A DNA stretch of 64,000 bases from an uncultured Clostridia bacterium (lineage in GTDB: Bacteria; Bacillota; Clostridia; TANB77; CAG-508): NCBI GenBank assembly GCA_934130935.1, contig CAKOYQ010000008.1, positions 1,865 to 65,864 on the forward strand. The letters are read 5' to 3'. A program made the translations under genes and the position numbers. The first letter of the stretch is position 1. The number at the start of each line of letters is the position of its first letter. The notes under the pieces were generated by a model. It was not told the DNA's origin, searched no databases, and saw only the letters and a program-made list of their open reading frames with translations. Shown in pieces: positions 11,783 through 61,159 of the stretch.

Positions 11783-11786
11783 AAGA

Positions 11787-20725: not shown

Positions 20726-22432
20726 GTGATAATTATTAAGCGTTTTATTTTTACACTTATTTTTTTGGTATTAACATCTTTTATTTCTTATCATTTTTTT
20801 CAACCTTTATACCAAGCAACAGAAGTTATTATTTCCTTTGGCTTAAATCCCTCAGACATTTGTTACGATAATCCTTTAATTTGGAAATTTATAAAAATTA
20901 GTTTTATTTTTTTCAATATATTTTCAAATTTTATTATAATTAATTCAATAATTTTAAGATTTCATATTTTTGAAAAAAATATTACACATGTAAAACCAGC
21001 TACGGGAATTAATAATACAACTCAACTATCAAAAACAGATTTACAATTATTAATAGGTTACAATGTTTCTAATAACTCAAAAATATATTTACCAGAATCA
21101 GGATTATATCAAAACTTTTTAATAACTGGCACTATAGGTACTGGTAAAACAAGTTCTGCAATGTACCCTTTTACAGAACAATTAATCAAGTATAATTACT
21201 TACACCCCACTAAAAAATTAGGTATTTTAATATTAGATGTAAAAGGAAATTATTTCAAACAAGTAAAACAATTTGCCACAAAATATCATTTAGAAAAAGA
21301 TATAATAGAAATTGGTTTACACTCTAAAATACGATACAATCCTCTGCATAAACCAAACCTTAATCCAATAGTTTTAGCTAATAGACTTAAAACTATTTTA
21401 TTATTATTTTCAGAAAATAACTCTGAATCTTTTTGGCTTGATAAAGCAGAACAAATTTTAACCGAATGTATTAAACTCTGTAGATTATATAATAATGGCT
21501 ATGTCACTTTTATAGAATTACATAAATTAATTACTGAACCTGATTATTATAAATCAAAAATTGAAATATTAAAAAATTTATTTTATCAATCAAAGTTTTC
21601 TCATAAAGACATTTATGAACTTAATACCGCTCTTGAGTTTTTTGAAAAAGAATTTAACTCTTTAGATCAACGTACTTTAGCTATTCTAAAATCAGAAATT
21701 TCTAGAATTACCAATATATTTATTTCAGATTACAATGTTTCAAAAACTTTTTGTCCAGAAAAAAAAGATTTAAATTTCAAAAGTTTTAGTTCAATGATTC
21801 AAAAAGGAAAAATTGTAATTTTAAATATGAATATTGCAGAATATAAAAATCTTTCAAAAATTATTGCTGCATATTTAAAATTAGATTTCCAGTCAGAAAT
21901 AATGTATAATTTATCACATGCAAAAACTCGACCTTCTGTTTTTATATGTGACGAGTATTCAGAATATGTTACAAAAACAGATGCAGATTTTTTCTCTCTC
22001 AGTCGTGAAGCCAAATGCATAAATATTGTTTCAACTCAAAGTTATTCTTCCCTAAAAAATACACTAAAAGACGAAACTTCTGTAAAAGTTATTATTCAAA
22101 ACTTAATCAATAAAATTTGGTTTAGAACTGATGATATCTTCACAATCGAAGAGGTTCAAAAGCAGTTAGGAAAAGAAGAAAAATTTTATACATCAAAAAG
22201 TATTTCAGAAAATGCTAAAGAAACAAAGTTTAATTATATAACAAATTCTTTAAATTCGCAGAATTCAAGTATCACAGAAAGTTTAAATACCTACACTCAA
22301 AAGGATTTCATTTATGATACAAATTTTTTCACTCAAAATTTGGAAACTTTTTCATCTCTTGCCTTTTTATCAGATGGCTCACATATATTAAAACCATCAA
22401 AATTGAAAATGTTTCCATATTTTGAAAATTAG
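20726..22432 (+). CDS. Type IV secretion coupling protein (VirD4/TraG/TrsK-like), 2 N-terminal TMs
   Basis: Two N-terminal TM helices. Walker A GTIGTGKTSS and Walker B VFICDEYSE; size 568 aa. Confidence 0.65.
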   Translation: MIIIKRFIFTLIFLVLTSFISYHFFQPLYQATEVIISFGLNPSDICYDNPLIWKFIKISFIFFNIFSNFIIINSIILRFHIFEKNITHVKPATGINNTTQLSKTDLQLLIGYNVSNNSKIYLPESGLYQNFLITGTIGTGKTSSAMYPFTEQLIKYNYLHPTKKLGILILDVKGNYFKQVKQFATKYHLEKDIIEIGLHSKIRYNPLHKPNLNPIVLANRLKTILLLFSENNSESFWLDKAEQILTECIKLCRLYNNGYVTFIELHKLITEPDYYKSKIEILKNLFYQSKFSHKDIYELNTALEFFEKEFNSLDQRTLAILKSEISRITNIFISDYNVSKTFCPEKKDLNFKSFSSMIQKGKIVILNMNIAEYKNLSKIIAAYLKLDFQSEIMYNLSHAKTRPSVFICDEYSEYVTKTDADFFSLSREAKCINIVSTQSYSSLKNTLKDETSVKVIIQNLINKIWFRTDDIFTIEEVQKQLGKEEKFYTSKSISENAKETKFNYITNSLNSQNSSITESLNTYTQKDFIYDTNFFTQNLETFSSLAFLSDGSHILKPSKLKMFPYFEN

Positions 22433-22806: not shown

Positions 22807-23685
22807 ATGGAGAGTAATTCAAATATAACTTCAAATATTATTGAAGCAGTTAACACTATCTTAGGAAATTTATTTTCTTCAATAGATAGCAATGTTTATA
22901 ATGTTCTTGATGACATTACTTTTATAAGTTCAGATATAATTAATGATTCTTATTTTGAAAAAATATTAGGAACTTCAGCATCCAATGGAATTTTATTAAT
23001 ATCAAATTCTCTACTTTTTGGTTTTTTATTATATTATTCTATAAAATACCTATTTGCACATTTTACATTTCAACAAATAGAAAAGCCTTCGCAATTTATT
23101 TTTAAATCTATTATTTTTGGTATTTGTATTAATTTTTCATATTTTTTTGTCGGAGAAGCCTTAAATTTTTTATCTAATATATCTCTTGCAATTAGAGGGA
23201 TTGGAGAAGATTTATTTCATAAAAACATTTGCTTTTCTGAACTGATTTTAGAAATAAACAATGATATTTCTATAACCTCCTCTTCTTTAGATATTTTTTC
23301 ATTAGATGGAATTATTAAAGCTTCACTTACAATGTCTTTATTAAATCTAGTTTTTACATATTCTTTTAGATATGTAATGATTAAAATTTTTATTTTACTT
23401 ACACCTTTTGCAATTTTGTCATTAATATTAGAACATACTTCATGGTTTTTTAAAGCTTGGGTTCGCAACTTATTTTCTTTATTATTTATACAGATTATTG
23501 TCTCTATTGTTTTATTAATATTATTTTCTATGGATTATTCTTCTAATAATTTAATGACTAAATTCATTTATATTGGAGCAATTTATGCTCTAATAAAATC
23601 AAATTCTTTTGTTCGTGATTTCATCGGTGGAGTTTCCACAACTTTTACTCAAAATGTGGAAAACTTATTTAAAAAATCACATTAA
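22807..23685 (+). CDS. Polytopic membrane protein, VirB6/TrbL/TrsL-like
   Basis: About 6 predicted TM helices across 292 aa. Sits inside a T4SS gene string. Confidence 0.45.
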   Translation: MESNSNITSNIIEAVNTILGNLFSSIDSNVYNVLDDITFISSDIINDSYFEKILGTSASNGILLISNSLLFGFLLYYSIKYLFAHFTFQQIEKPSQFIFKSIIFGICINFSYFFVGEALNFLSNISLAIRGIGEDLFHKNICFSELILEINNDISITSSSLDIFSLDGIIKASLTMSLLNLVFTYSFRYVMIKIFILLTPFAILSLILEHTSWFFKAWVRNLFSLLFIQIIVSIVLLILFSMDYSSNNLMTKFIYIGAIYALIKSNSFVRDFIGGVSTTFTQNVENLFKKSH

Positions 23686-23914: not shown

Positions 23915-24199
23915 ATGAAATTTATAATTCCTCAAAATTATAATTTTAAAAATAAAATATTTGGTATTTTAGATTATTCAACAGCTTTTTTAAATTTATT
24001 TTGGTATACACTTAACTTTATTATACTTAACTTATTTTTTAACAACTGGAACATAAAAATATTTTTTCTTATTTCTCTATGTCTTCCATTAACTTTATTT
24101 AGCTTAGTTGGATTTAATGGAGAATCTGTTGTTTATGTCCTTAAATATGTTATCAAATATCTACTTAGGCCAAAACTATATTTATTTAAAAAATTTTAA
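23915..24199 (+). CDS. TcpE/VirB3-like small membrane protein, 94 aa
   Basis: N-terminus FIIPQNYNFKNKIFGILDYSTAF resembles the TcpE-like ORF at 50478 (YNLPRNVKGEGRILFIFSTKSL). Two TM helices. Confidence 0.5.
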   Translation: MKFIIPQNYNFKNKIFGILDYSTAFLNLFWYTLNFIILNLFFNNWNIKIFFLISLCLPLTLFSLVGFNGESVVYVLKYVIKYLLRPKLYLFKKF

Positions 24200-29074: not shown

Positions 29075-29290
29075 TTATTTTTTTAAGCTTTTTATTATAA
29101 ATCTAACTCCATCCTTAAAGCCTTGTTTATAATATAATTCACTTATTATATTCATTTTTATATTATTCCTTTCTTCTTCGCTATTAACCTTTATTTGTTT
29201 TATTTTATAGTGATATTCTCTCTGTATATTTTCTTCTATATCCTCATATCTTTCTTCAAAAATTCTATTTAACATTTCATCATCAAACAT
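29075..29290 (-). CDS. Hypothetical 71-aa acidic protein
   Basis: Listed in the ORF track only; divergent from the XRE regulator gene. Confidence 0.3.
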   Translation of the reverse strand: MFDDEMLNRIFEERYEDIEENIQREYHYKIKQIKVNSEEERNNIKMNIISELYYKQGFKDGVRFIIKSLKK

Positions 29291-29464: not shown

Positions 29465-29815
29465 ATGCAATTTAATAGAGAAAATATCGATATTGGTGAA
29501 AGGCTACGTAGTATAAGAGAGGGCATGAACATGACTAGAGAACAATTCTCTGAAAAAATTGACATTACAGATTCTTTTTTAGGTCAAATTGAAAGAGGTG
29601 AACGTGCTTTAAGTGTAAAAACTTTAAAAAAAGTTGTAAAATATACTGGCGTTTCCGCAGATTATTTATTATTCGGGCAAGATAACAATAATAAAACAAT
29701 TCAAAAAATAAATAATATTTTAACAGTAAATTCTGATGCAACATCTGATTTTATTTATCATATTGTTATGTGTTCAAATGACTTCTGTAAAAAAATTTTA
29801 GAAGAAAATAAATAA
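29465..29815 (+). CDS. XRE-family helix-turn-helix transcriptional regulator
   Basis: HTH LRSIREGMNMTREQFSEKIDITDSFLGQIERGER. RBS GAGGTGA upstream of the start. Confidence 0.8.
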   Translation: MQFNRENIDIGERLRSIREGMNMTREQFSEKIDITDSFLGQIERGERALSVKTLKKVVKYTGVSADYLLFGQDNNNKTIQKINNILTVNSDATSDFIYHIVMCSNDFCKKILEENK

Positions 29816-29854: not shown

Positions 29855-30556
29855 TTAGCTTGCAAGATTATTTGCTAATTTTATCTCATTTTCTGTGATA
29901 TTAAAATTTTGCCCATTATTTTTTATTAAATTATGAAGTGTTTTAACCCTTTTTGTTTCTTTAATAATATTTTCCAATGGAATTATTTTTTCTGACTCCT
30001 GCTCAATCTTTTTTAATTCTTTTGTCATTTTCTCAAAATCTCTTTGGTTATAATATTCTTTCCAGTTTTTTAAATATTTTTCTAATTTCTCAATAGTATT
30101 TGTCTGTTTATTTAACTCAGTTTTTATATTTTTAGTTACATTATTTAATAATACATTTTTTCCATTTTTTATAAGATTATTAACATTTTTATTTATATAC
30201 CCATTTTGATATGTTTTATTTATTACTTTATCTAATACACCTGAAATTGAATCTATAATTCCTCCACTACCTATTGCAATTTTTACTTGTTCAATATTTT
30301 CAAAATTTCCACTAATTATTCCATTAGCACTTTTCCAAAAATCTATAGCAGAATTTATTGCTGTATCTATGCCTGATTTTAACCCATTTTGTAATAAAGC
30401 ATTTTTTATATCAATTATTTGATTTTCTATTAAATCTGGTAATATTGCTCTTAGTCCTATATCCAAAGCACTATTTATTGTTCTTCCAATAACATTATTT
30501 AAAAAATTTTTTTTCTCTATATTAATATTATTATTTATTTGATTTTCTATTTCCAT
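29855..30556 (-). CDS. Hypothetical protein, 234 aa (start moved to the internal Met MEIENQ)
   Basis: RBS AGGAAAGGA sits 8 nt upstream of ATG 30556. This start avoids the 50-bp overlap with the upstream gene that the track start 30625 would create. Confidence 0.45.
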   Translation of the reverse strand: MEIENQINNNINIEKKNFLNNVIGRTINSALDIGLRAILPDLIENQIIDIKNALLQNGLKSGIDTAINSAIDFWKSANGIISGNFENIEQVKIAIGSGGIIDSISGVLDKVINKTYQNGYINKNVNNLIKNGKNVLLNNVTKNIKTELNKQTNTIEKLEKYLKNWKEYYNQRDFEKMTKELKKIEQESEKIIPLENIIKETKRVKTLHNLIKNNGQNFNITENEIKLANNLAS

Positions 30557-30575
30557 ATATTTTTCCTTTCCTTTT

Positions 30576-32399
30576 TTATTTATTTTTTTCTTCAATAATT
30601 TCTTTTTCAAAATCACTTGCTTCAATATTTATTAAAATATGCTCATCACCAACAAATGTCAAACATTCTCCTCTTCTTAAAGATTTTATTTCTATTTTTT
30701 CTTTTTCTGATAAATTAGAATATTGTGATAATACCTTAATATTTTCTTCTTCTAAGGAAAAAAATGTTTTTATGCTAGAATTATTTAAAATACTTTTTCC
30801 GTAAGTTCCATTTTCTAAACTAAATAAATCTGAAATATCTTGTGTAATTGCAACACTACTCCCTCCATATTTTCTAATAGTTTTAAAAATCTTATAAATA
30901 AATTTTGCAACTTCTTTATTTGATGTAACACCTATTAATCTCCATATCTCATCTAAATAAATTGCTTTTTTTATTTTTCTATTTATTTTTATTTTATCCC
31001 AAAATAATTCTGTAAATAAATACATTCCATATTTCATATTTTCTTCACCTAATTCATATACATCAGCAATAATTAATTTTTTATTTAATTCTATATTTGT
31101 ATAATTATTAAAAAATTTCAATGAGCCTTTAATAAATGGTATCAATTTTATTTTAAATTTTTTTGTTTTTTCATCATTTAAATTATTATATAAATCTTCC
31201 AATATTGGCATATCTTTTGTTATTTTAAATTTACCCTTTTTATATAATGTTTTATCATTAAATGTAATATTTTTCTTTTTATATGTTTCAATTAATTTTT
31301 CTTCTAAAATTGCTTTTTCTTCCTCATTTAACTCTCCAAAAATTAAATTAAAAAATCCAATTAATTTTCCTATTTTTGTTGCTAAATATCCGTGCTCATT
31401 TTCTTCTATGCTTTCTTTTCTAATATCAAAAATATTTATATAATTTTCAGAAGTAGGTCCTATTTTTATAATTGTGCCATTTAATTTTTTAGCAATATTA
31501 TTATATTCTTTTTCTGGGTCTATTACATATTGTTCAATTCCTAATAATGTATTTCTTAAAATTAATAATTTTGTATAAAAAGACTTCCCAGCTCCACTTG
31601 TTCCAAAAATACACATATTTGCATTTTTATATTTACTGGTATTATATCTATCAATTAAAATTAAAGAATTATTATACATATTATTCCCTATATAAATCCC
31701 CTTTTCTTCAACTATTGATGATGACAAAAACGGATATGTACTTATTAATCCAGATGTCAAAATATTCCTTTTTCCAACTTGTTTTAAATCTTCATGATTT
31801 TCTAATATAGGTAAACATGAAATAAAAATTTGCTCTTGTCTAAAATTTGCTCTTCTTGTTTGTAAGCCTTTACTTTGCAATATTCCTTCTATTTTATCTA
31901 AATTATATTCTAATTCTTTTTTATCTTTTGCAAAAACATTTAAATAAATATATAAAAAATATATATTTTCATTATTTATTTGAATTTCCTTTCTTATATA
32001 TTTTGCATCATTATATGTAAAAGCTGCTATATCTATATCCTGTCTGTTTTCACTTGATTGTTTTAATTCAACTCCAACATTTCCTATATTATAGGTCAAT
32101 TCTTTAATTGTTTTAGCTGTTTCCTGTTTTTCATAAAATATTGAAATATTCATATTTATATTTGTTTCTATTAAAGATTTTAAAATTAATTCATTATATT
32201 CTCTATAATAATTTACTATAATTATTCCAGAATAAAAATAATCATCTATCTCCAAAAATTTAGGATTATTTAAATTAATATATGTTGGAGAAATAAAATC
32301 CTTTTCATTAAAAAATCCTTCATATAATTTTATATTATTTTTTTCTCCCTCTTTTTTTAATATTTTATCTTTAATATTGTTTATTATTTTTTTATTCAT
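30576..32399 (-). CDS. VirB4/TrsE/TraE-like conjugation ATPase (AAA-like/DUF87), 607 aa
   Basis: Walker A IFGTSGAGKSF, then DPEKEY, Walker B LDEIW, and ITQ. Clearly paralogous to ORF 51980..53941. Confidence 0.75.
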   Translation of the reverse strand: MNKKIINNIKDKILKKEGEKNNIKLYEGFFNEKDFISPTYINLNNPKFLEIDDYFYSGIIIVNYYREYNELILKSLIETNINMNISIFYEKQETAKTIKELTYNIGNVGVELKQSSENRQDIDIAAFTYNDAKYIRKEIQINNENIYFLYIYLNVFAKDKKELEYNLDKIEGILQSKGLQTRRANFRQEQIFISCLPILENHEDLKQVGKRNILTSGLISTYPFLSSSIVEEKGIYIGNNMYNNSLILIDRYNTSKYKNANMCIFGTSGAGKSFYTKLLILRNTLLGIEQYVIDPEKEYNNIAKKLNGTIIKIGPTSENYINIFDIRKESIEENEHGYLATKIGKLIGFFNLIFGELNEEEKAILEEKLIETYKKKNITFNDKTLYKKGKFKITKDMPILEDLYNNLNDEKTKKFKIKLIPFIKGSLKFFNNYTNIELNKKLIIADVYELGEENMKYGMYLFTELFWDKIKINRKIKKAIYLDEIWRLIGVTSNKEVAKFIYKIFKTIRKYGGSSVAITQDISDLFSLENGTYGKSILNNSSIKTFFSLEEENIKVLSQYSNLSEKEKIEIKSLRRGECLTFVGDEHILINIEASDFEKEIIEEKNK

Positions 32400-32418
32400 A
32401 TTTTTCCTTTCTACCTTT

Positions 32419-32994
32419 TTAATATTTATCCAAAAATTTTTTTAAATTAAAAAATGAAAATAAAATATTTTTTGTTTCATCTCTACTACATTCTAAAACT
32501 ATATTTCCACATCTTATCAAACAATCTTTTATTTTAAAATATTTTTCATTTAATTCTTGAATAATATTTTCTTCTAAATTTTCTGTATTATTTTTAATAA
32601 TTAAATAAATATTTTTTGATGCAGATTTGTTTTTATTATTTTTTTCTTTAATAAATTCAACATAATTTTGTGAATATTTTTTTATTATTTTATTTTTTTC
32701 TCTTTGAGATATTTTTTGAATATTTTCTATGTGTTCACTTAAATCTTCTTTTTTACTTTGAATTAAAATTTGAATATCAAAATTACATGTTTTTAAAAAA
32801 ACTTTATAAGAATTTAAAATCGATTCTTTTTCTAATTGAGTTTTTAAATTAAAATTTATTGGAATTACCTTTAATATTTTTATATATTTATTTTTTTTTA
32901 CTTTTATAATACCTCTTTCTAAAATTCTTTCTATGGGTATCCACTTTTGTATAGATCTAATCTTTCTCACCTCCAATATACCAAGCTGCAACAT
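32419..32994 (-). CDS. TrsD-like protein (VirB4 N-terminal-like domain as a separate ORF), 191 aa
   Basis: KWIPIERILERGIIKVKKNKYIKILKVIPINFNLKTQLEKESIL aligns with FDTVRDNMIIQKNGNRYLMVVECQGINYDLMSGVEKTSVE of ORF 50818..52029. It sits immediately upstream of the ATPase. Confidence 0.5.
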   Translation of the reverse strand: MLQLGILEVRKIRSIQKWIPIERILERGIIKVKKNKYIKILKVIPINFNLKTQLEKESILNSYKVFLKTCNFDIQILIQSKKEDLSEHIENIQKISQREKNKIIKKYSQNYVEFIKEKNNKNKSASKNIYLIIKNNTENLEENIIQELNEKYFKIKDCLIRCGNIVLECSRDETKNILFSFFNLKKFLDKY

Positions 32995-33164: not shown

Positions 33165-33625
33165 CTCAAAAAAATTTTAAATTTTTTGTATAGAAAAAAT
33201 TTTTCTGCACATAATATGTGTATAAGGTTAACATCAGTTGAGTGAAGAGTATTGATGGATTATTTATTAGTTTGTTAATATTCGAGCAAAGATGTATATT
33301 GGTTCATTTTTATGGATTAATATATGTCGGCGATAAAAATATATTATATGTATGTAAGCTGTATTTTATTTAAATTTTCAAGGATTATTTTTATATTTTA
33401 TATATGGTTAAATTATATGTAATATATTTGAACTAAGATTATTCTTGTATTATATGGGATTGTTATTAGTCCCTCGAGGATGAATATGGTTTCTACTAGT
33501 GCATTTGTAGTCGAGCAACTGATTAATATATGTGGTGTATGGTTTATTTGTATAGCAATATGCATTAGATCAAACCACTATATATATTAGTCTGAGTTAA
33601 GATTGGTTTTGGCTTTATAGATAAT

Positions 33626-33670
33626 AGGATTCCACTTGATATGGAATCCTATTAATTTTTTTCTTTTTTT
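33626..33670 (+). terminator. Rho-independent terminator for plus-strand transcription (AGGATTCCA-loop-TGGAATCCT then T-rich tail)
   Basis: 9-bp perfect stem followed by ATTAATTTTTTTCTTTTTTT. Orientation suits a rightward transcript from the ORF-free region 33.2-33.6 kb. Confidence 0.55.
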
Positions 33671-50009: not shown

Positions 50010-50372
50010 ATGAGCACAAAAACAATGAAAATATTAACAACAATCGCAACAATATTATTAATTATATCTATGGGAGCTTCTGTTGTATATGCGGATGGAA
50101 TTACTCCAGATAAATTAAAGCCATCATATCAAGGAACAGGAGATATACAAACTGTTGGGCAAAAAATAATGGGAATTATAAATACAGTTGGAGTTGTCAT
50201 TGCTGTTGTAATATTAATGATATTAGGTATAAAATATATGATGGGTTCTGCGGAAGAAAAAGCAGAATACAAGAAAACAATGATTCCATATATTATTGGT
50301 GCTGTATTGATATTTGGTGCAACAACTATAGCAAATGCAGTATATAATTTTGCAAATGGTTTAAATAGTTAA
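50010..50372 (+). CDS. VirB2/TrbC-like pilin-family protein (signal peptide + two hydrophobic helices)
   Basis: TTGCAA-17-TATAAT promoter at about 49888 and RBS AAGGAGG. C-terminal helix region matches the paralogs at 63088 and 63735. Confidence 0.55.
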   Translation: MSTKTMKILTTIATILLIISMGASVVYADGITPDKLKPSYQGTGDIQTVGQKIMGIINTVGVVIAVVILMILGIKYMMGSAEEKAEYKKTMIPYIIGAVLIFGATTIANAVYNFANGLNS

Positions 50373-50477
50373 TAAAAATTAAAAAACTTAAAAAAAAAAA
50401 TCGATAAATACTTCCATTTATCGATTTTTTTTGCTATAATAAAATAAGATAATTGTATAAAAACAAAGGAGGAAGAT

Positions 50478-50825
50478 ATGGGAACATATAATTTACCAAG
50501 AAATGTAAAAGGAGAAGGAAGAATACTGTTTATATTTTCGACAAAATCATTAATAACAACTTGCATTGGATGTGCAGTAGGACTTGTATTTTATTTTATA
50601 TTCAAGCTTTTAGGATTGACAATGGTGGGTTTCATAATAACATTAATTTTTGCTCTAATAGGATATTCAATAGGAATGTTTAAGATACCAGATAATAATG
50701 GATTTGAGTTGACCAAAAAGACAGGTGGAGAGAATATAGATGATGTTATAATAAGGTATATAAAATTTAAAAGAAATAATAAAAAATTATATGTATATAC
50801 AAAGGAGGAAAAGTCAAATGGATAG
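50478..50825 (+). CDS. TcpE-family / VirB3-like membrane protein
   Basis: Two TM helices, 115 aa, immediately upstream of the VirB4 module. Confidence 0.55.
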   Translation: MGTYNLPRNVKGEGRILFIFSTKSLITTCIGCAVGLVFYFIFKLLGLTMVGFIITLIFALIGYSIGMFKIPDNNGFELTKKTGGENIDDVIIRYIKFKRNNKKLYVYTKEEKSNG

Positions 50826-52029
50826 TCAATCAACTACACAAATTGTAAGTGTACTTTCAATTTTTTTAATCTTAATTGTTGTAGCAATAATTGCGTTAAT
50901 ATCTTTTTTAGTATATCTTCATTTTAAAGAAAAAAGAGAAAAAGGAACTGATAAAAATGAGAATGTAAGTTCCAATGAGAAAAATACAAAAGCACAAAAT
51001 AAACAATCAATTTTTAATTTCATGGAATTTGATACAGTAAGAGATAATATGATTATACAAAAAAATGGTAACAGATATTTAATGGTAGTAGAATGTCAAG
51101 GGATAAATTATGATTTAATGTCAGGAGTAGAAAAAACTAGCGTAGAAGAAGGATTTGTACAATTTTTAAATACATTAAGACATCCTGTACAGATATATAT
51201 CCAGACAAGATCAATTAATCTTGAATCAAGTTTGTCTGTATATAGAGAAAAGGTAAAAGCTGTAGAAATGAAATTAACAAATATGCAAATGCAGTATGAA
51301 CAAATGAGGGAATCAGGAGAATACTCAGAAGAACAATTAAGAAGAGCATTTTTTGAAGTTACAAAACAAGCCAATTTATATGAATATGGAAAATCAGTAT
51401 TGCAAGATACTGAAAGAATGAGTTTAAATAAAAATATATTAAATAAAAAATATTATTTAGTAATTCCATATTATTCAGCTGAAGCTGCAAATGATAATTT
51501 AGATAAAGCTGAGTTAGAGGGTATTGCTTTTTCAGAATTATATACAAGAGCACAATCATTAATAAGATCGATTTCAATATGTGGTGTTAGAGGAAAGATA
51601 CTTAAATCAAACGAACTGATTGAATTGCTATATATGGCATATAACAGAGATGAAGCAGAGACTTTTGGATTAGACAAAGCGATGAAAGCAGGTTATGATG
51701 AAATTTATGTAACAGCACCAAATGTATTGAAGAAAAAGATGGCAGAGATAGATAAAATGATAGAAGATAGAGCAGTTAAAATGGCAAATATGAAAGTGGA
51801 TGAAGCTAAAACAGAACTAGAAAGACAAGTTGAAGAAAAAGAAAACAACATGGATGATTTAATTGCACAAATGGCAAAAATTATTATACAAGAAAATGAG
51901 CAATACTTAGGAACAGAATTAACAGACAAAGCGATTGAGAAAATAGATGATGAAAAGACAAAAGAAGGAGGTAATGCAAATGAGAAAAGAAAAACGACAA
52001 GAGGTAGAAAAAAGACAACAGCCAAATAA
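50818..52029 (+). CDS. TrsD-like membrane-anchored protein carrying a VirB4 N-terminal-like domain
   Basis: RBS AAGGAGG 8 nt before ATG 50818 (the track start 50791 overlaps the previous gene). N-terminal TM. The FDTVRDNMIIQKNGNRYLMVVECQGINYDL region is paralogous to ORF 32419..32994. Confidence 0.5.
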   Translation: MDSQSTTQIVSVLSIFLILIVVAIIALISFLVYLHFKEKREKGTDKNENVSSNEKNTKAQNKQSIFNFMEFDTVRDNMIIQKNGNRYLMVVECQGINYDLMSGVEKTSVEEGFVQFLNTLRHPVQIYIQTRSINLESSLSVYREKVKAVEMKLTNMQMQYEQMRESGEYSEEQLRRAFFEVTKQANLYEYGKSVLQDTERMSLNKNILNKKYYLVIPYYSAEAANDNLDKAELEGIAFSELYTRAQSLIRSISICGVRGKILKSNELIELLYMAYNRDEAETFGLDKAMKAGYDEIYVTAPNVLKKKMAEIDKMIEDRAVKMANMKVDEAKTELERQVEEKENNMDDLIAQMAKIIIQENEQYLGTELTDKAIEKIDDEKTKEGGNANEKRKTTRGRKKTTAK

Positions 52030-53941
52030 CAATGAACCACAATTATTAAAAAGACAAACAATAAAAGAATTGATTGCACCTTCTGGAATTGATGCAAGTA
52101 ATATAGATCATTTGGAAATAATTTCAAATGTAAAAAAATATGCAAGAAGCTTTTTTGTATCTACATTACCAAGAATGTGTACATTTCCCGAATTATTTAG
52201 AGATATGTATTTTTTCGGTGATATAAATACATCAATATATATAAATCCTATACAAGAAGCTAGATCACAAAATCAGTTGAACAAAGTTATTAATGAACTA
52301 GAAACTGAAAGAATAGTTGCAGCAGACAGAGGAAACATAAATAGAGAAAGTAATTTAACACAAAAAAGATTTGAGGCAGAGCAATTAAGAGATGAAATTG
52401 CTGCAGGATATAATAAATTATATGAAGCATCTGTTGTTGCTACAATTTTTACATATAACTTAAGTGATCTTGATAGACTTACCAAATTATTAGCAACTGA
52501 AATGTCAAAATCATTAGTAGGAATAAAAACCTCATGGGCAATGCAAGAAGATGCATTTAAATCCAATGTACCATTAATGGAGGACAAAATTAAAAAAACA
52601 CACACATTTGATAGGCGTTCAATGTCGACAGTATTTCCATTTGTAACGTCAGAAGTTGGACACTCAACAGGAATACCATTAGGATTTAACAAACAAACAG
52701 GGACACCAATATTATTTGATAATTTCCATAGTTCACTTACAAATTATAATATGGTAATATTTGCAAAATCTGGTGCTGGTAAATCTGTAACGATGAAGAC
52801 ATTAATAAGTAGATCATCATTATTAATGGGAATTGAAAGTTTAGCACTAGATGCCGAGGGAGAATATGAGATAGTAGCAGAGTCTTTAGGTGGCATTAAT
52901 GTAGTGCTTAGTCCAAATTCTAAAACAGTTATAAATTTGTTTGATGTAGAAACTGAAACAGCCAAAGATGAGATAACAGGAAGAGAAAGGTTAGTACTTA
53001 ATATTGAAAATAAAGTTGAAGACGTTACACAATCATTATTAACAATGGCAAGAGGAAGCACAAGAAGTACAGAAGTAAATGAGTTGACAAAACAAATTAT
53101 AGCAGAATCAGTTGCAGAGGAATATGCTGCATTGGGAATAACAGGTGACCCTAATAGTTTGTATGAAGCAACAAGCAATTTCAATAGGGGTGATAAGTTA
53201 TATAGAGAAAAGAAAAAAATGCCAACAATAGGGTCTTGGTATAGAAGGATACAAGCGAAAGCACAAGATAATTTAAATGATGATTATAGGTATCATTATA
53301 GTTACTTATTAAAAGTAATGAAGCAATATATAAGAGAATATAATGGTCAAATGGCTTATTTTGATGGACAATCTACATTTGAATTACTTGAAGGAGCACC
53401 ATTTATAAATTTAGACATATCTCAATTAGAGGAAAAATTTGCAAGACCACTTGCACAACAAATTCTTTTAACTTGGATATGGGAAAAATTTGTTAAGAAA
53501 AATAGTGAAGATAGGAGTAAAGCTACAAAGAAAAGAGTAATTGTAGATGAGGCTTGGATGTTACTTCCATACCCAGAGGCTGTTGACTTTTTAAATACAA
53601 TGGCAAGACGTGCAAGAAAAAGAAATGTTTCTCTTGCGGTAGTTTCACAAAGATTTCAAGATTTTTATGAGAGACCAGAAGCACAGGCAGTACTTACATC
53701 TTCTGATACGAAATTATTTTTAGCACAAGATAAATCGGAAATACAATATTTAAAAGAAGTATTTAAATTAAGCGAAGGAGAATCAAGTTTCTTAGTAACT
53801 TGTGGAAAAGGTGAAGGTTTGTTGAAGGTTGGACCTGAGTCTGCTATTTTACAGATTACACCTACCCAAAAGGAATTTGAGTTTGTTGAAACTAACTTGA
53901 ATAAGTTAGTAAATAAAAGAAGAGTAGTAGGAAATCTTTAA
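51980..53941 (+). CDS. VirB4/TrsE/TraE-like conjugation ATPase, 653 aa
   Basis: RBS AAGGAGG then ATG 51980. Motifs LIAPSGID, Walker A IFAKSGAGKSVT, DAEGEY, Walker B VDEAWMLL and VSQRFQD. Confidence 0.8.
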   Translation: MRKEKRQEVEKRQQPNNNEPQLLKRQTIKELIAPSGIDASNIDHLEIISNVKKYARSFFVSTLPRMCTFPELFRDMYFFGDINTSIYINPIQEARSQNQLNKVINELETERIVAADRGNINRESNLTQKRFEAEQLRDEIAAGYNKLYEASVVATIFTYNLSDLDRLTKLLATEMSKSLVGIKTSWAMQEDAFKSNVPLMEDKIKKTHTFDRRSMSTVFPFVTSEVGHSTGIPLGFNKQTGTPILFDNFHSSLTNYNMVIFAKSGAGKSVTMKTLISRSSLLMGIESLALDAEGEYEIVAESLGGINVVLSPNSKTVINLFDVETETAKDEITGRERLVLNIENKVEDVTQSLLTMARGSTRSTEVNELTKQIIAESVAEEYAALGITGDPNSLYEATSNFNRGDKLYREKKKMPTIGSWYRRIQAKAQDNLNDDYRYHYSYLLKVMKQYIREYNGQMAYFDGQSTFELLEGAPFINLDISQLEEKFARPLAQQILLTWIWEKFVKKNSEDRSKATKKRVIVDEAWMLLPYPEAVDFLNTMARRARKRNVSLAVVSQRFQDFYERPEAQAVLTSSDTKLFLAQDKSEIQYLKEVFKLSEGESSFLVTCGKGEGLLKVGPESAILQITPTQKEFEFVETNLNKLVNKRRVVGNL

Positions 53942-53955
53942 TTCGAGGAGGAATA

Positions 53956-56463
53956 ATGAAGCTTATGTTTAGAAAAAAATGTATAGCACGAAAGATATTA
54001 ATAATTGTACTAATAGCACTGTCTTTAACATTTGCAATATCACAGTGTTATAGTGTTTATGCAGAGCCAACAAAAGTTGAGGAAGATGATTTGCCTGATG
54101 AAAGTTTGGGGAGTAGAATAATGGGATCGCTGCTAAAACAAATTATACAACTGATTGACTCTGTGGGTGATGTTATAATGGGAACATTGAATAAGTTTAT
54201 GCTAGGGGCTGACGGTTTTTCTTCTGCAATGTTATCAGTTGATGATGAAAACTTGGATCCAAATTCTGGTTCATGGTTAACAGAAAATTTAGGAGAGCCA
54301 GATTTTGATTATGGAGAGAATACTATAAATACAGCATTGTTTGGTAATGATAAATATGAAGTCCCTAATTTTTTATATTCACCAGAAGCAATATTCTCAA
54401 ATAATATAGCTGCTTTGGATGTTAACTTTTTAAATCCCAATAAATACACAGCAGTTTCAGAAAGTAAGGCGGCACAAGAAGCTTCAGTTTCAGCTGCAGG
54501 AACTGATGGACTAAGAAAAGTAATTTCTGACTGGTATATATCTTTTAGAAATATTGCTATAGTAGGATTGCTATCAGTATTAATTTATTTAGGAATTAGA
54601 ATTGTAATTAGTTCAACAGCAGTAGAAAAAGCTAAATATAAAGAAAATTTACAAAATTGGGTAGTCGCATTATGCTTAGTGTTTTTTATACATTTTATAA
54701 TGTCAGGATTATTAATGATAACAGATAAATTCAATAATTTATTTGAAAATACTGCAAATAGTGGAATTGTTGTTCAATCATTTTATGAACATAAAGGAAA
54801 AACAGAAATTAAATTTAGAACTAATCTTATTGGTTTTGTAAGATTTAATGCACAATCAGCAAGTGCATATGATACAGTAGCATATTCAATATTATATTTG
54901 ATATTAATTGTTTACACATGTAGATTTACATTTATGTATTTTAAGAGATTTTTATATATGGCATTTTTAACAATGATTGCACCATTAGTTGCGTTAACAT
55001 ATCCACTAGATAAAATGGGAGATGGTAAAGCACAAGCATTTAATGCATGGTTTAAGGAATATGTTACACATTTAATATTACAACCAGTACATTTGATATT
55101 ATATGTTGCTTTTGTATCATCAGCAATGGATTTGGTAAAGAATAATATTTTATATGGAATAGTTGCAATTGGATTTTTGATACCAGCAGAAAAATTAATT
55201 AAGGAAATGTTTAATATAGGAAGTGGTGCAAAAACAGCAGGAGGACTTGGTACTTTTGCAGGAGGAATGTTTGCCAAGAATTTACTTGATAAAGGAGTTG
55301 CTAAAATTGGCAAGGGAGGCAAATCAGGAGATGGTTCGAATAAATCAGGTTCTTCAGGTAATAACGACGAGTCTAATAATAAAATAAGAACTCAAGACAG
55401 AGATTTTGCACAATCATTTGCTGATGATGGAGGCAATCAAAATAATCCACAATTAAATGGCGGACAGGATAACAATGGAGATGAACAAGATGATGAAACA
55501 CAAAGAATGATGAATGACAGACAAGTATGGCAAGATATGGCAAATGACCCAAATGAGATAGAACAGGTTAGAAATGATGCTCAAAGAGAAGTTGATCAGA
55601 TAGATCAAAATATGCAAGGACGAGAGCCAGGAAATGTACCAACTATTAGACAACAAAATAACAACAGTACGCCTAAAGAACAGGATAAATGGAGAAGAAA
55701 GTTAGCAAAGAAAATGGCCATAAAAGGAGCTAAGAAAATAGGTAAAACAGCATTTAAAGGAGCTAAAGCACTTGGAGCTGGAGTACCTAGAGCTATAGGT
55801 GCTACAGTGGGAGGTGTGGCTGGGTTAGCTATGGGTGCTGCAACTGGAGACTTTTCTAAAACCTTACAATATATGGGAGTTGGAGCAATGACAGGAAATA
55901 CCATTGGCAAAGCGGGGGCTGATTTATCAAAAAGAGGTATTGATTCGGCTGTAGCTGGCATGAAAGGTTTGGGATATGAAAAAGACAAAGCAAAATACGG
56001 AATTGCATATGCTGCCGAAAAAGCAGAGATGAAACAAAATAAAAGAGCAAGAAGAGAGTTTATGAAGAGTAAAGAAGAGCAAGAAAAGTATGAAGAAATG
56101 GCAGGAAGAATTAGTAGGGCAACACAACAAGATGTAAGTGCAAAAGATTTAATGAGTGCTGCATTTGATTATAAGTTAGCAGGAATTACAGATGAAAAAC
56201 AAATCGAGAATGGACTAAAAATGGAAGCTAAATATGGGAAGGATAATAAAAATATTCACGAAAACATGATTGATATTGTTAATATGGCTAGTAGTTATGG
56301 AAAAGATTATGTCTTAGATGATAAAAAACGTAGTTCAATGCAAGATACAATAAAATCAAAAGTTAAAGGTGCAAAAAATCAAGATAAAGTTTGGGATTTA
56401 TATACAGAGGCATTGGGATTTGATAGTAATAGTTTAGGTGATAAATATAAGATGCAGAGATAA
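53956..56463 (+). CDS. TcpH/VirB6-like polytopic membrane protein with long C-terminal Gly/Ala-rich soluble region, 835 aa
   Basis: Signal/TM then at least 5 TM helices and a hydrophilic tail. Size matches TcpH of pCW3-type systems. Confidence 0.55.
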   Translation: MKLMFRKKCIARKILIIVLIALSLTFAISQCYSVYAEPTKVEEDDLPDESLGSRIMGSLLKQIIQLIDSVGDVIMGTLNKFMLGADGFSSAMLSVDDENLDPNSGSWLTENLGEPDFDYGENTINTALFGNDKYEVPNFLYSPEAIFSNNIAALDVNFLNPNKYTAVSESKAAQEASVSAAGTDGLRKVISDWYISFRNIAIVGLLSVLIYLGIRIVISSTAVEKAKYKENLQNWVVALCLVFFIHFIMSGLLMITDKFNNLFENTANSGIVVQSFYEHKGKTEIKFRTNLIGFVRFNAQSASAYDTVAYSILYLILIVYTCRFTFMYFKRFLYMAFLTMIAPLVALTYPLDKMGDGKAQAFNAWFKEYVTHLILQPVHLILYVAFVSSAMDLVKNNILYGIVAIGFLIPAEKLIKEMFNIGSGAKTAGGLGTFAGGMFAKNLLDKGVAKIGKGGKSGDGSNKSGSSGNNDESNNKIRTQDRDFAQSFADDGGNQNNPQLNGGQDNNGDEQDDETQRMMNDRQVWQDMANDPNEIEQVRNDAQREVDQIDQNMQGREPGNVPTIRQQNNNSTPKEQDKWRRKLAKKMAIKGAKKIGKTAFKGAKALGAGVPRAIGATVGGVAGLAMGAATGDFSKTLQYMGVGAMTGNTIGKAGADLSKRGIDSAVAGMKGLGYEKDKAKYGIAYAAEKAEMKQNKRARREFMKSKEEQEKYEEMAGRISRATQQDVSAKDLMSAAFDYKLAGITDEKQIENGLKMEAKYGKDNKNIHENMIDIVNMASSYGKDYVLDDKKRSSMQDTIKSKVKGAKNQDKVWDLYTEALGFDSNSLGDKYKMQR

Positions 56464-56518
56464 AAAAATAATTGATATAAAAATATATTATTATAAGTTG
56501 CAGGAAAGAGGATGAAGT

Positions 56519-57451
56519 ATGTATAAATTATGGAGATACTATAATCAAAATAGAGTAAAAGTATGGACTGTAATAATAACAATAATATTAGTATATTCTC
56601 TAATAAAAATATTAAATATACAGGCGAGAAATAAAAAGCCAGAAACAAAGAAAGAAACAACATCAAATGTTGTTTCTTATCGTAACGAAAGCGAATCAAT
56701 GGTATCTGGGAAAAGTATTCCAAATGAGTATAAAGATAAATTCGGAAGTTTTATAGATCAATTTTTTACAGCATGCATAGAACATGATATAAAAACAGCA
56801 TATAGCATGCTGTCAAATGATACTAAACAGGAGCTATATCAAACTGAAAAGCTTTTTGAGAAAAATTATTATGAAAATAAATTTACAGGAGATAAGCAGT
56901 TTTCATTTCAATCATGGTCAAATACTGATGGAGTATATATTTATCAAGTAAAAATATTTGACAATATGCTTTCTACAGGGAATACAAATGATAATTACAT
57001 AGAGGAATATGTAGCTTTAAAGGTTGAAAATGGAGAATATAAGCTAAACATAAACAGTTATTTAGGGAGAAATACAATAAATAAAAAAAGCGAAGATGAT
57101 AAATTAGCGGTTCAAGTAGTTAGGGCAGATAGGTATTTAGATTATGAAATCTATACAATAAATATCCAAAACAAAACTAACAAAAAATTAATATTAGATG
57201 CTAAAAGGAAAACAAATACTTGTTACGTTCAAGACAATTTAGATAATAAATTTGAGGCACTTTTGTATGAAAATAAAGATGAAGACCTAATATTTAATCC
57301 GAATGAGGTAAAAACAATACAAATAAAATTTAGTGATGCTAATAGGTCAAATATGAAAATAAAAAGTATTAATTTTACAGATATAGTATATAGTTCGGAA
57401 TACAACAATAATACTAATATTAAAGGCGAAAACTTTAAAATAGATATTTAG
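56519..57451 (+). CDS. Membrane-anchored extracytoplasmic protein (candidate VirB8/TcpC-like)
   Basis: Single N-terminal TM then a 280-aa soluble domain; position inside a T4SS operon. Confidence 0.35.
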   Translation: MYKLWRYYNQNRVKVWTVIITIILVYSLIKILNIQARNKKPETKKETTSNVVSYRNESESMVSGKSIPNEYKDKFGSFIDQFFTACIEHDIKTAYSMLSNDTKQELYQTEKLFEKNYYENKFTGDKQFSFQSWSNTDGVYIYQVKIFDNMLSTGNTNDNYIEEYVALKVENGEYKLNINSYLGRNTINKKSEDDKLAVQVVRADRYLDYEIYTINIQNKTNKKLILDAKRKTNTCYVQDNLDNKFEALLYENKDEDLIFNPNEVKTIQIKFSDANRSNMKIKSINFTDIVYSSEYNNNTNIKGENFKIDI

Positions 57452-57482
57452 AAAAAATAAAGCCAATAAAGAGGTGAAATAT

Positions 57483-58049
57483 TTGGGAATAATAAATAAT
57501 TTTAAAAATAAAGCAGAAGACGAAGCAAAAAAACAAGCTAAAAAAGTAGTAAAAAAAGCTGTTTTAAGTGCTTTGTTGTCAATAATGAATACATTGTTAC
57601 CAGTTTTATTAATTGGAATAGGAGGATTGGTGGTCCTTGGGCTTATCGATTGGGTTGTAGAAATATTTACTTCTGAAAATAATCCTGAATTAATATACGA
57701 ATCACTGGAAATTGAAAATGTTGCTGATTTGATTGAGATTAAAGGTGATGAACAAAATGGTTACTATTTGGATTTTATTGATGATATTGATAAGAAACTT
57801 GAAGATGTTATAGATAAATATAATAAATCTGCTGAATATCATAATCTTCCAGAAGATGTTAATTTTTTAAAAAAGATGTTAAAAGCAGAAGTATTTACTC
57901 AGCTTCCAAACCTGAAAGGAAATATACCAAGTGAATCTAAAGATGGATTTCAAGGTGCAATAAATATTAGAAGGGTAACACCGAATAAAAAACCACGGAG
58001 AAATGCAAAATACTGGCAAAGGAGAAACTTCTACTATCGAGCAAGCTAA
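57483..58049 (+). CDS. Small membrane protein; 3' end overlaps the hydrolase ORF in another frame
   Basis: RBS GAGGTGA then TTG 57483 (the track GTG 57474 is also possible). TM helix LLPVLLIGIGGLVVLGLIDWVV. Confidence 0.4.
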   Translation: MGIINNFKNKAEDEAKKQAKKVVKKAVLSALLSIMNTLLPVLLIGIGGLVVLGLIDWVVEIFTSENNPELIYESLEIENVADLIEIKGDEQNGYYLDFIDDIDKKLEDVIDKYNKSAEYHNLPEDVNFLKKMLKAEVFTQLPNLKGNIPSESKDGFQGAINIRRVTPNKKPRRNAKYWQRRNFYYRAS

Positions 58050-61000
58050 AGTTGACGAACCTGTTGAGATTACAGATAGAAATGATTTAAATAAATTAAA
58101 TAATATGTCTAATGGATCAAAACTTAGAATTATTCCAATAGACGCACCGCTCTATAAAAATATTAAAGGATACTGGACACCTATGACAGATGAAAAAGAT
58201 CCTAATAAGCAAATAAAATTACAAAAGGGTGATATAGTTACTTATAAAGGCGAGTATGAGACTTTTAAAAATGTTGTTACAGATGAGACAATCGCATATT
58301 TAAAGGTTACAACAGAAGATGAAAAAGAGGGATATGTTAAATTATCTACAGTGGAACTTGTACTAAATAATAATGATAATACTAAAACAGGAAAGATAAC
58401 AAACCAGAATTTAAAAAGTAATGTAACTTCCAGAGCAAAGGTTTCGGGAAAAACAATAGGACAAGATAAAGAAACATATGTAGTAGCAATAGCGGCAGGA
58501 AGAAACAATGAAGATGAAAAGGGTATAACTAATAAAGAAAAAAATTTAAAAGAAGAAGAGCTTACAATTAAGGTTGCAGAAAAAGTAAAGGAACTTCTAA
58601 GTGGATATACAAATATTAAAGTTGTACAAACTGGAAGTACGTCAAATAATCTAGGAGGAGTAAAGAATAAAGATAGAGCACAGCTAACTAGAGATGTAAA
58701 TCCAAATTTATGTATTCAGATATATTTTGGAGATGGTAATGATGTTGGTGTTGAAACAATATATAAAGAGGGAGACGATATTTCACAACAACTTGCAGAA
58801 ATATTAGCTAAAAACATGTCTTCTTCAATGGGACTTGAAAATTTAGGTGCCGGAGCAGATACTACTAAATGTAAAGATGCAGATGGAGCAAGTGCATCTT
58901 TAAGTATTATAGATAATGCAGCTGTAACAGGATTCCCATCAGTTGTAGCGATGGGGGGGAATTTAACTAAGGACCCTGATGCAAGTGTTATTGCTGGAGA
59001 TGGTGTTAATAAATATGCGCAAGCGATAGTTAACAGTATAGATGAATATTTTAAAGCAGATTATTCAGGACGTACATCAACAGAAGATGTGAATACAACT
59101 TATAAAGATAGTACAGAGTCAAGAATTATTAATATGAAGTATGTATCTCCAGAGAAGCTACAAAAATATGTAGATGGTGGCGATTTTGAAAACGCTTTAA
59201 AATCATATACAATAGATGATGAAAAAAATTTAGTAATTGTTACTTGGTCAAGAGGAGAAGATGGAAGTATTGAATTAAGAACTAATAATTCTATGAATTT
59301 GAAAACAGCATTAAAAAAATTTGTAATGCCATATGAATATTTATTATTTTTCTACATTGATACAGATTATGAAAAATTTGTAGATGATTTGGAAGAAGAA
59401 GTTATGAAAACTGAAATAGTTATGGCTGTACAAGATAATATAAGCACTACTAATACAACTGAAACAACAAAACAAAAAAAGGATGCAGATGTTGATAAGT
59501 TTGATGAAGATTGGCACGAGACAAACAAAAAGACTACACTAACCGAAAACGTAAGTACTACTGTGAATGTAACATATGTACAAAACTGGTGTGTAAAGGC
59601 ATATCAAGAAAATAGTTATAGTGAGGCAGTATTACAACTAGGAGACGAAGAAGAAAAAATTATAGATGTACCAGGTAAAGTTACAGAATCAACATCAAAT
59701 TCATCTACAACGGAAGAGGTTGTTAATAGTGGCAGTGAAACATATAATGAGATAGAAACAGATGCTAATGGTAATTCAACACAAGTACAAAAGAGTTATA
59801 ATTATAAGACATATGAACAAAAATTATCAAATATACATACGATTTCTAATTCATATGAGAGAGGAGAATACAAAACAGAAGGTAGAGAAAGTGTATTTGT
59901 AGAATTATATAATAAACATAATATGATAATGAAGGTTAGAACATCAGATTATTTATTTAAGATTATAGAAAATAATGAGAGAACAGCAGATTTATTAGAT
60001 TTAACTAAATACTTAATTTATAAAGCAACTAATATTCCTTGGGGAGTTTTGGAATTCGATTTTAGTATATTTGATTTAGAGCAATTTAATAGTATATCAA
60101 TGGGAGGATTAGATGCATTTATAAGATATTTAAATAAAATGGAAGGTAGTTTTGGTGAATCTCCAGATGGAACTAAATATGTAATAGGGGTTGATACAAA
60201 TGCAGGCAGTTTAGCGTTAGCACATGGTATTGATTTGACATATGGTGGATACAGGAAAAGATTTGAAGATGCAGGATATAAAATAAGGGCTGGAGAGTAT
60301 GTTGATAAAGAATTTGTAGACGGTATAGTAAAAGAAATAGTTTTAAAAGACTTAGATGAAGTAAATAAATTGGGATTAGATTTAACGCAATATCAAAAAT
60401 ATGCATTGGTATCCAGAATGTTTAATTGTGGTCATGCAGGAGCATTATTATACTCACGTGGTGGTAACAAGAATTTTGTTGAAGCATATAATCGTTATTG
60501 GGACCAAGAAAAAGATGATGAATATAAAGTGACTGAAAATGAAGGCATGTATAAACATAAACTCTATGAAACTTACATGAATAAGCCAGTTACTTCTCAA
60601 AGTGGTTATGTGCCTGGACTCGAAACAAGAAGGAGATCAGAATGGATTTTATTTAAAACAGGTTATTATACATATACAGGTGAATGGTGTTCTGATTCTT
60701 ATGGAGGAAATATAGTAGAAGCAGCTGCAACTGTGCATGATTATATATCTTCAAATGAATATTTATATTACACAGATGGAGGAGGAGGTTTGCCAAGTTC
60801 TTTAAAAAATGTAAAAAATACAAGATCTGTTTGTTGTGCAACATTTGTATCATGGACATTATATGAAGCAGGATATGATTGGATGGAACAGTGTCCAAAT
60901 ATAAATGCTTGTGCGTCATTATTACCATTCTTAATTAAGAATGGCGGAAACAAAATAATGAATCCAACACTAGATAAGTTACAACCTGGAGATATCTTAT

Positions 61001-61149: not shown

Positions 61150-61159
61150 GGAGTTTATA

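Follow-up and report, generated by a model that had tools for sequence, protein, structure and literature searches.

A split VirB4 gene pair between gyrB and gyrA of uncultured gut Clostridia, the probable motor of a minimal type IV secretion system

The stretch of DNA analysed here (the window) is a 64,000-nt replication-origin region of a Firmicute with a GC content of about 28%, in which the GC skew flips sign near 40 kb. The genes dnaA (38674-40143), gyrB (33686-35617) and gyrA (26524-28977) lie on its minus strand, as do dnaN and recF between dnaA and gyrB. Between gyrB and gyrA are the two minus-strand genes with which this study is concerned, viz., N191 (32419..32994), an open reading frame (ORF) matched by the CD1110 VirB4 model that codes for a 191-aa, TrsD-like protein corresponding to the N-terminal domain of VirB4, and A607 (30576..32399), an ORF with Pfam, CD1110 and PDB matches that codes for a 607-aa VirB4 C-terminal P-loop ATPase. 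A second pair, comprising an N-domain ORF (412/403 aa; 50791/50818..52029) and an ATPase ORF (664/653 aa; 51947/51980..53941), lies on the plus strand.

The first-pass annotation of the window had placed two such pairs here and read them as homologous, and the alignments bear this out both for the ATPases (BLASTP, 26% identity over 519 aa, E 1e-37) and for the 191-aa and 403-aa N-domain proteins (28% identity over 69 aa, E 9e-8). The stretch common to the N-domain proteins is the signature that the annotation had pointed out (IIKVKKNKYIKILKVIPINFNL in N191 and MIIQKNGNRYLMVVECQGINYDL in the second pair), and the ATPase motifs it described can be read directly from the translations: Walker A is GTSGAGKS in A607 and KSGAGKS in the second ATPase, the DPEGEY-type motif DPEKEY and DAEGEY, Walker B IYLDEIW and VIVDEAW, and the ITQ/VSQ-type motif AITQ and VVSQ, respectively. 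Neither ATPase has a frameshift or an internal stop, and both match Pfam P-loop_TraG, AAA_10 and DUF87. The term paralogous, which had been applied to the pairs, is right as to homology but loose at this level of identity, the two ATPases belonging to different VirB4 lineages.

The members of each pair cover complementary parts of VirB4. On the NCBIfam CD1110 VirB4 model (752 positions, family cut-off 325 bits), N191 spans positions 2-129 (E 1.6e-10, 39.9 bits) and A607 positions 186-732 (E 5e-87, 292.9 bits); neither half alone reaches the cut-off, and their simple sum of 332.8 bits, a rough addition only, lies above it. The 664-aa second ATPase covers CD1110 positions 183-729, and the 412-aa N-domain protein preceding it covers positions 50-269, in the N-terminal part of the related Mbov_0397 VirB4 model of 894 positions. 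These complementary coordinates indicate that each pair is one VirB4 cut at the same domain boundary. The C-terminal domain of Thermoanaerobacter VirB4 (PDB identifier 4AG5) is matched by A607 with an E of 1.6e-42. Both chains can moreover be laid on a fused relative, P0126 (849 aa), where N191 aligns at residues 27-208, with 36% identity to the N-terminus, and A607 at residues 258-849, with 45% identity. Thus, the earlier suggestion that the small upstream protein is VirB4's N-terminal domain, carried by a gene of its own, holds good and, judging from their sequences, N191 and A607 are the two chains of one split VirB4.

One genome per GTDB species was scanned for relatives of the ATPase, which were found in at least 395 genomes; the best 80 (71-93% identity) were studied, and the synteny counts given here take in only those loci that are long enough to reach the gene in question. 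The sources of these 80 species genomes are human, rabbit, mouse, chicken and ruminant guts, and the exact 607-aa ATPase is found on many human-gut metagenome contigs in the same gene context. The related genomes include those of uncultured Clostridia bacterium and Clostridium sp. CAG:356, CAG:575 and 28_12, one closed genome measuring 1.57 Mb. An N-domain gene precedes the ATPase gene in 73 of the 74 species loci with room for it. A search of 1.8 billion cluster representatives returned full-length relatives of about 600 aa from 72% down to 45% identity, save for the fused P0126, while most relatives below 40% identity are fused proteins of 800-1000 aa. At the 20 species junctions that were read base by base, the N-domain ORF ends in TAA or TAG before the ATPase ORF, and at most of them a ribosome-binding site (RBS; Shine-Dalgarno) stands ahead of the ATPase ORF. 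The relative reading frame of the two ORFs varies from species to species, which together with the RBS indicates two genes and not a recent frameshift. The same three observations (TAA/TAG stops, varying frame and RBS) rule out stop-codon readthrough or a reassigned codon between the two ORFs, which had been suspected at 13 loci. The split of VirB4 in this group thus appears to be old and maintained.

The starts of these genes are unusual. Of the ATPase genes of 79 species, 47 lack any ATG, GTG or TTG near their start, the first such codon lying more than 10 codons inside the homologous region, and 63 show an RBS followed by ATA or ATT; the starts of gyrB, gyrA, dnaN and recF are always canonical. 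The true start of N191 is possibly an ATT at 32961, after the RBS GGAGG. Non-canonical starts were noted for the ATPase and N-domain genes across loci L018-L097, and also in the window region at 20726, where a coupling-protein gene described below begins. Such starts cause gene callers to truncate or miss genes, including the N-domain gene of locus L009, which is called as truncated to 101 aa; this candidate case of decay was ruled out, since the frame is open for about 190 codons from an RBS and ATA. The AUA/AUU starts suggest translation that is deliberately low or sensitive to initiation factor 3 (IF3).

The first-pass annotation had regarded the pair between gyrB and gyrA as orphaned, with no adjacent VirB6 or pilin. 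This does not stand, as a plus-strand operon (hereafter operon 2, the operon headed by N191 and A607 being operon 1) with candidate partners lies past gyrA and the host dnaI- and dnaD-like genes, 6-12 kb from N191/A607, and the genes for its VirB2-, VirB3- and VirB6-like proteins and coupling protein are co-conserved in 20/20 to 23/24 loci. It encodes a VirD4-type coupling protein (T4CP568; 20726..22432; Pfam TrwB_AAD_bind and TraG-D_C), which bears a Walker A motif GTIGTGKT and VFICDEY, is the only type IV coupling protein (T4CP) in the window, and is 40% identical to the T4CP of L017, a plasmid-like locus with a fused VirB4, relaxase, MobC, M23 peptidase, T4CP, pilin and a 316-aa protein. 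The next gene codes for a 105-aa VirB2-like T4SS (type IV secretion system) pilin (P105; 22481..22798), with weak Pfam matches to T4SS_pilin (E 3e-4) and TrbC (E 4e-3) and 34% identity to the L017 pilin. It is followed by a 292-aa polytopic membrane protein (M292; 22807..23685) that is homologous to proteins of T4SS loci, viz., one of L014 (E 3.5e-13) and the 316-aa protein of L017 (22% identity, E 2e-5), has a sub-threshold TrbL/VirB6 match (E 0.1), and aligns with the 835-aa VirB6-like protein of the second cluster with an hhalign E of 0.025. M292 is thus probably VirB6-like. The fourth protein, V94 (23915..24199; 94 aa), has two hydrophobic segments and no Pfam match. An alignment of 20 species reveals an invariant N-terminal MKFI.P.N motif, and its C-terminal GEN..Y...PKLYLYKK motif can be weakly aligned with the second cluster's PrgI-family protein (E 0.0026, probability 12%), by which V94 is probably VirB3/PrgI-like.

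The order dnaA-dnaN-recF-gyrB-[N-domain, ATPase, helical protein]-gyrA-dnaI-dnaD-[VirB3, VirB6, VirB2, coupling protein] is kept in nearly all of the 80 genomes. gyrB lies at most 5 kb upstream in 61 of 62 loci and gyrA downstream in 42 of 45; dnaD, M292 and V94 are found beyond gyrA in 23 of 24, and P105 and the T4CP beyond M292 in all 20 that extend so far. Compared with the window, the ATPase has a median identity of 74%, against 71% for DnaA, 68% for RecF, 84% for DnaN and 85% for GyrB, and its divergence is correlated with the divergence of each of its neighbours (rho 0.45-0.84). The ATPases of 80/80 species keep Walker A, Walker B and AITQ. Nei-Gojobori estimates of dN/dS for the window against ten close relatives indicate purifying selection on all of the genes concerned, with 0.08-0.17 for A607, 0.15-0.32 for N191, 0.09-0.16 for the T4CP, 0.08-0.24 for M292, 0.10-0.11 for P105 and 0.10-0.21 for V94, the comparison genes dnaA and recF giving 0.08-0.15 and 0.08-0.25.

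These data bear on the view that the pair is the decaying remnant of an integrated conjugative element (ICE), drifting towards pseudogenes, which the first-pass annotation had entertained. A remnant would fit the lack of a relaxase homologue or recognisable integrase nearby, the low GC content of the insert, the loss in this lineage of a TadZ-like gene described below, and the disruption of the T4CP gene by an insertion sequence (IS) in some strains. It is nevertheless refuted by the low dN/dS of the ATPase, the motifs invariant in 80 species, the intact frames and the family-wide synteny, the short N-domain gene of L009 being an artefact of gene calling at an ATA start, and we give it next to no credence. 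Nor does the locus behave as a still-mobile, ICE-like island that enters between gyrB and gyrA time and again and has its relaxase and integrase genes at some other place. That a fused relative sits in a relaxase-bearing, plasmid-like locus would favour such an island, as would the low GC content and the length of the ATPase-to-gyrA segment, which ranges from 0.8 to 5.8 kb among loci. However, the variable presence or position of an ICE is not seen, the position being fixed in the 61/62 and 42/45 loci noted above; the divergence of the ATPase tracks that of the flanking housekeeping genes; and the partner operon is set apart by gyrA and dnaI/dnaD. The best match of the ATPase among the plasmids of PLSDB is only 34% identical, no homologue of the L017 relaxase or MobC was found in the 64-kb window using these as tblastn queries, and no relaxase or integrase family occurs among the Pfam scans and gene tables of the locus and its neighbours. 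An island of this kind is thus very improbable, and recent acquisition of the locus likewise seems very unlikely from these comparisons.

A repurposed role, which had been listed among the possibilities, is the option that the evidence favours. Among such roles the first-pass annotation had named defence, and anti-phage defence or another non-secretion form of DNA translocation can draw on the matches of A607 to PADLOC mads_8 (E 3e-17) and to a PHROG annotated as terminase large subunit (E 3e-14). Both matches are generic to P-loop proteins, and the second ATPase scores similarly or better (mads_8, E 5e-20). Moreover, no other Mads component was found among the neighbours tested and the co-conserved neighbours are T4SS parts, so that defence is as hard to credit as decay.

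The third gene of operon 1, U233 (29855..30556, minus strand), has its own RBS and codes for an all-alpha protein in which no hydrophobic segment is evident by eye. Members of its family, 41-74% identical and with a dN/dS of 0.21-0.45, are present at all 52 loci that span the ATPase gene to gyrA and at 61 loci overall. Its AlphaFold2 model is all helical (pLDDT 78.8), and a Foldseek comparison of the model with the PDB gave no match with an E below 1. In 39 of 52 species a gene for a TadZ/CpaE-like protein of about 400-480 aa, with a receiver-like N-terminus and a ParA/CbiA P-loop domain, intervenes between the ATPase gene and U233 (L034 11811-13247, L085 11855-13147 and 37 other loci). At two loci with distant split VirB4 proteins, L014 (52% identity) and L181 (38%), TadZ-like and CpaF/T2SSE-like genes follow. 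Such neighbours suggest that this VirB4 subfamily may be functionally tied to Tad-type pili. Two further genes lie between U233 and gyrA. An XRE-family helix-turn-helix regulator (29465..29815, plus strand; Pfam HTH_3, E 1.5e-14) is convergent with the operon and lineage-restricted, being present at only about 13 of 52 loci, and a 71-aa ORF just upstream of gyrA (29075..29290, minus strand) is confined to close relatives (56-66% identity, dN/dS 0.14-0.38).

The TadZ-like gene raises the question of whether the ATPase pair serves as the assembly motor of a Tad-type pilus or adhesion structure, recruited via the TadZ-like protein, and not in secretion. The frequency of that gene behind the ATPase gene and the company kept by the distant split relatives at L014 and L181 speak for it. 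A conserved Tad pilus cluster has also been reported in the uncultured gut order TANB77 (PMC11680825). The present clade may fall within TANB77/CAG-508 of GTDB, which is unconfirmed; no paper was found that connects CAG-356 or CAG-575 with it. However, a VirD4-type T4CP that is co-conserved under purifying selection points to substrate transfer, and the window lineage is without the TadZ-like gene yet keeps everything else. We regard a pilus motor as unlikely and secretion as the better reading of the pair.

The spacer of about 690 bp between gyrB and N191 is mostly unalignable between species except for islands, the clearest of which reads TGTCGAA-N3-TGTCGAA(CGA)TTTTTC-TTGACA-N17-TATAAT. In the window, on the minus strand, this corresponds to a first box TGTCGAT (33131-33125) and a second box TGTCGAA (33121-33115) separated by TTT, followed by a -35 element TTGCTT (33105-33100), a 17-nt spacer and a -10 element TATAAT (33082-33077). 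A perfect TGTCGAA is present at the promoter in 54 of 70 species, against a background expectation of 0.015 per 400 nt; the distance from the first box to the N-domain gene downstream has a median of about 65 nt (interquartile range about 50-125), and a second box lies three bases off in several species. The heptamer occurs 97 times in 1.29 Mb of loci, 78 of these on the operon strand. Tandem boxes at a spacing of 3 bp match what a Spo0A dimer binds. Spo0A of both B. subtilis and C. difficile recognises TGTCGAA, which is the core Spo0A box (PMC3485338). The tandem boxes directly upstream of the promoter thus predict that operon 1 is under Spo0A control. Upstream of the T4CP operon no 0A boxes were found in the three loci reaching that far.

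Just past the gyrB stop lies a 13-bp hairpin with a T-run (33622-33654), which is terminator-like in the plus-strand orientation and has a palindromic stem; the VirB4 operon may therefore be transcribed separately from gyrB. A promoter and terminator scan returned promoter-like sites at the level of shuffled sequence, missing the operon promoter, and as a terminator only this gyrB hairpin. An Rfam scan of 28-36 kb gave snoRNA matches at chance level only.

Based on these observations, we propose, with a probability of roughly 0.7, that N191/A607 is the motor of a minimal, monoderm T4SS of MPF-FATA-like type, which has been passed down vertically as part of the core genome in a large clade of uncultured gut Clostridia with small genomes. 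Its components would be divided between two operons on either side of housekeeping genes at the origin: operon 1, between gyrB and gyrA, with the N-domain protein, the ATPase, in most species the TadZ/CpaE-like ParA ATPase, and the helical 233-aa protein, and operon 2, beyond gyrA and dnaI/dnaD, with the VirD4-type coupling protein, VirB2-like pilin, VirB6-like channel protein and VirB3-like anchor. Going by the roles of the respective families, the N-domain chain would dock the ATPase hexamer onto a VirB3/VirB6 membrane platform, the coupling protein would feed in a substrate, be it DNA or protein, and the ATPase would drive assembly and translocation. Operon 1 would be transcribed from the near-consensus sigma-A promoter and come under the control of Spo0A~P in stationary phase or at the onset of sporulation. 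The conservation of the T4CP under purifying selection argues for a translocated substrate.

Several observations weigh against this proposal. The VirB3 and VirB6 assignments are its weakest, resting on profile E values of 0.0026 to 0.1 together with topology and context, and neither operon contains a recognisable cell-wall hydrolase or VirB8-like gene. No substrate, relaxase or oriT was identified here. The T4CP gene of L001 (19968-21824) is cut to 201 aa beside an IS110-family transposase, and the gene calls of L005 and L008 have 504 aa in place of 568 aa; such shortened or IS-disrupted alleles in some strains imply that the coupling protein is not indispensable. The TadZ-like gene is missing from the window lineage (window 29855-30576), where it has been lost. 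The GC content of the insert, 17-21% against a local 28%, could mean foreign origin, though it is clade-wide. TGTCGAA is unenriched in the window (2 seen and 2.07 expected), so that the case for Spo0A is one of cross-species conservation only.

Among known systems, the closest analogue would seem to be the chromosomal T4SS of Patescibacteria (Candidate Phyla Radiation, CPR), which comprises VirB4, TrsD, VirB3, VirB6 and a VirB2-like pilin, is relaxase-less and often adjoins dnaA/dnaN, and which was indispensable for epibiotic growth in the single strain that was tested (PMC12102498). The likeness extends to a VirB4 with a separate TrsD-like protein, PrgI/VirB3, VirB6 and a VirB2-like pilin, and to MPF-FATA ancestry, the lack of a relaxase near the cluster, a chromosomal location near dnaA/dnaN and uncultured hosts with small genomes. 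The systems differ in that the host here is a gut clade of Clostridia, with the pair sitting in the gyrB-gyrA interval and its partner operon beyond dnaI/dnaD. Further, the T4CP, which in Patescibacteria is usually encoded far from virB4, is here encoded close by, and the Spo0A-type boxes at the promoter and the TadZ-like gene in the operon of most species set the present system apart.

The first-pass annotation had likened the pair to a TrsD-TrsE organisation. TrsD-TrsE of the staphylococcal plasmids pGO1/pSK41 belong to the pGO1 subclass of MPF-FATA and likewise have the gene for the VirB4 N-terminal domain directly upstream of the ATPase gene. The analogy is sound in kind, as TrsD is distantly homologous to the VirB4 N-terminus and is found in pGO1-type MPF-FATA systems (PMC12102498) and N191 fits the TrsD-type layout, in which a small homologue of the VirB4 N-terminus is encoded directly upstream of virB4. 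N191 nevertheless falls short of the curated NCBIfam TrsD profile (NF041427), with an E of 0.0073 and only 16.1 bits against a cut-off of 200. PF26593 (TraC-like) is given for N191 in a precomputed annotation; the Pfam scan made here returned no match for it. The pGO1/pSK41 genes are, besides, plasmid-borne conjugation genes accompanied by a relaxase, and the best similarity of A607 to Staphylococcus or other plasmids is below 35%. The best curated matches in sequence and structure are the CD1110-family VirB4 of C. difficile CTn-type ICEs and the Thermoanaerobacter VirB4 of 4AG5, which have the same Walker A/B architecture; the CD1110 model is that of a single unbroken chain of about 750 residues, which here is split in two. 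The type IV-C systems of Streptococcus suis and C. difficile reside in pathogenicity islands or ICEs. With their VirB1/VirB4/VirB6/VirD4 components (bioRxiv 10.1101/2021.07.12.452133), these systems resemble the present one as a minimal monoderm VirB4-VirB6-VirD4 set. The present system differs in belonging to the core genome, in its split VirB4 and in its place near the origin, and neither of its operons contains a recognisable VirB1-like hydrolase.

T4SS genes in Firmicute chromosomes are normally read as ICEs, whereas here T4SS parts are held between gyrB and gyrA across at least 80 gut species and are as conserved as DnaA. The T4SS proposed here would extend beyond Patescibacteria the co-option of conjugation machinery for a core function in small-genome, uncultured bacteria, and these bacteria are common in the guts of humans and animals. 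A bolder and quite tentative extension, which we consider doubtful, is that the whole family-level clade depends on a domesticated, relaxase-less T4SS wired into the origin-proximal core genome and the Spo0A developmental regulon, which may act together with a Tad pilus in the exchange of DNA or proteins between adjacent cells. If so, Firmicutes would have an equivalent of the T4SS without which Patescibacteria cannot live as epibionts, and this might be why the bacteria of the present clade resist cultivation. The promoter with its Spo0A-type boxes, the AUA/AUU starts and the TadZ-like partner linking to Tad pili offer testable handles, and a split VirB4 is well suited to dissecting the role of the N-domain.

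The second pair belongs to a plus-strand T4SS cluster (50010..62492) that follows parB and two tRNA-Ser genes. It begins with a VirB2 pilin (50010-50372; Pfam TrbC and T4SS_pilin) and PrgI/VirB3 (50478-50825; Pfam PrgI), followed by the membrane-anchored N-domain protein (50791/50818-52029; PF26593 in the precomputed annotation), the VirB4 ATPase (51947/51980-53941; Pfam P-loop_TraG) and the 835-aa VirB6-like protein (53956-56463), the remainder being ORFs of 310, 191, 1048 and 411 aa. Counterparts of the 1048-aa protein on other contigs bear Amidase_3 in the precomputed annotation. The ATPase of this cluster is 81-100% identical in 80 metagenome loci and its neighbours diverge sharply, the VirB6-like protein to 26-85% and the large Amidase_3-related protein to 22-98% identity. 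Nor is the position of the cluster constant: some contigs have it after parB and tRNA-Ser, and it lies beside nrdD/nrdG/prs in L129 (7012-21023), a locus with three pilin paralogues and a lysozyme-NlpC/P60 protein. As a conjugative reference for the gyrB-gyrA pair this cluster is undemonstrated, as no T4CP or relaxase homologue and no recognisable integrase is found within 10 kb. With these genes lacking within reach and the L129 copy flanking nrdD/nrdG/prs, its status as a bona fide ICE is unsupported. It is a faster-evolving second T4SS of unproven mobility.

Elsewhere in the window, rnpA, yidC, jag, mnmE, mnmG, rsmG, parA, parB and then the two tRNA-Ser genes lie on the plus strand. The intact mnmG of the window and other contigs (627-630 aa) is called in L098 (2637-4520) as two ORFs of 281 and 320 aa, probably owing to an assembly error or a strain-level frameshift. 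The segment 36001-37000, which spans the 5' part of recF and the recF-dnaN spacer, has the lowest GC content of the window (14.9%). Two very large minus-strand ORFs at 7829-18300 code for proteins of 1317 aa (no Pfam match) and 1607 aa (SdrD_B and DUF11) and are followed by a gene for a VanW/PG_binding_4/G5 protein; all three products are probably surface or cell-wall proteins.

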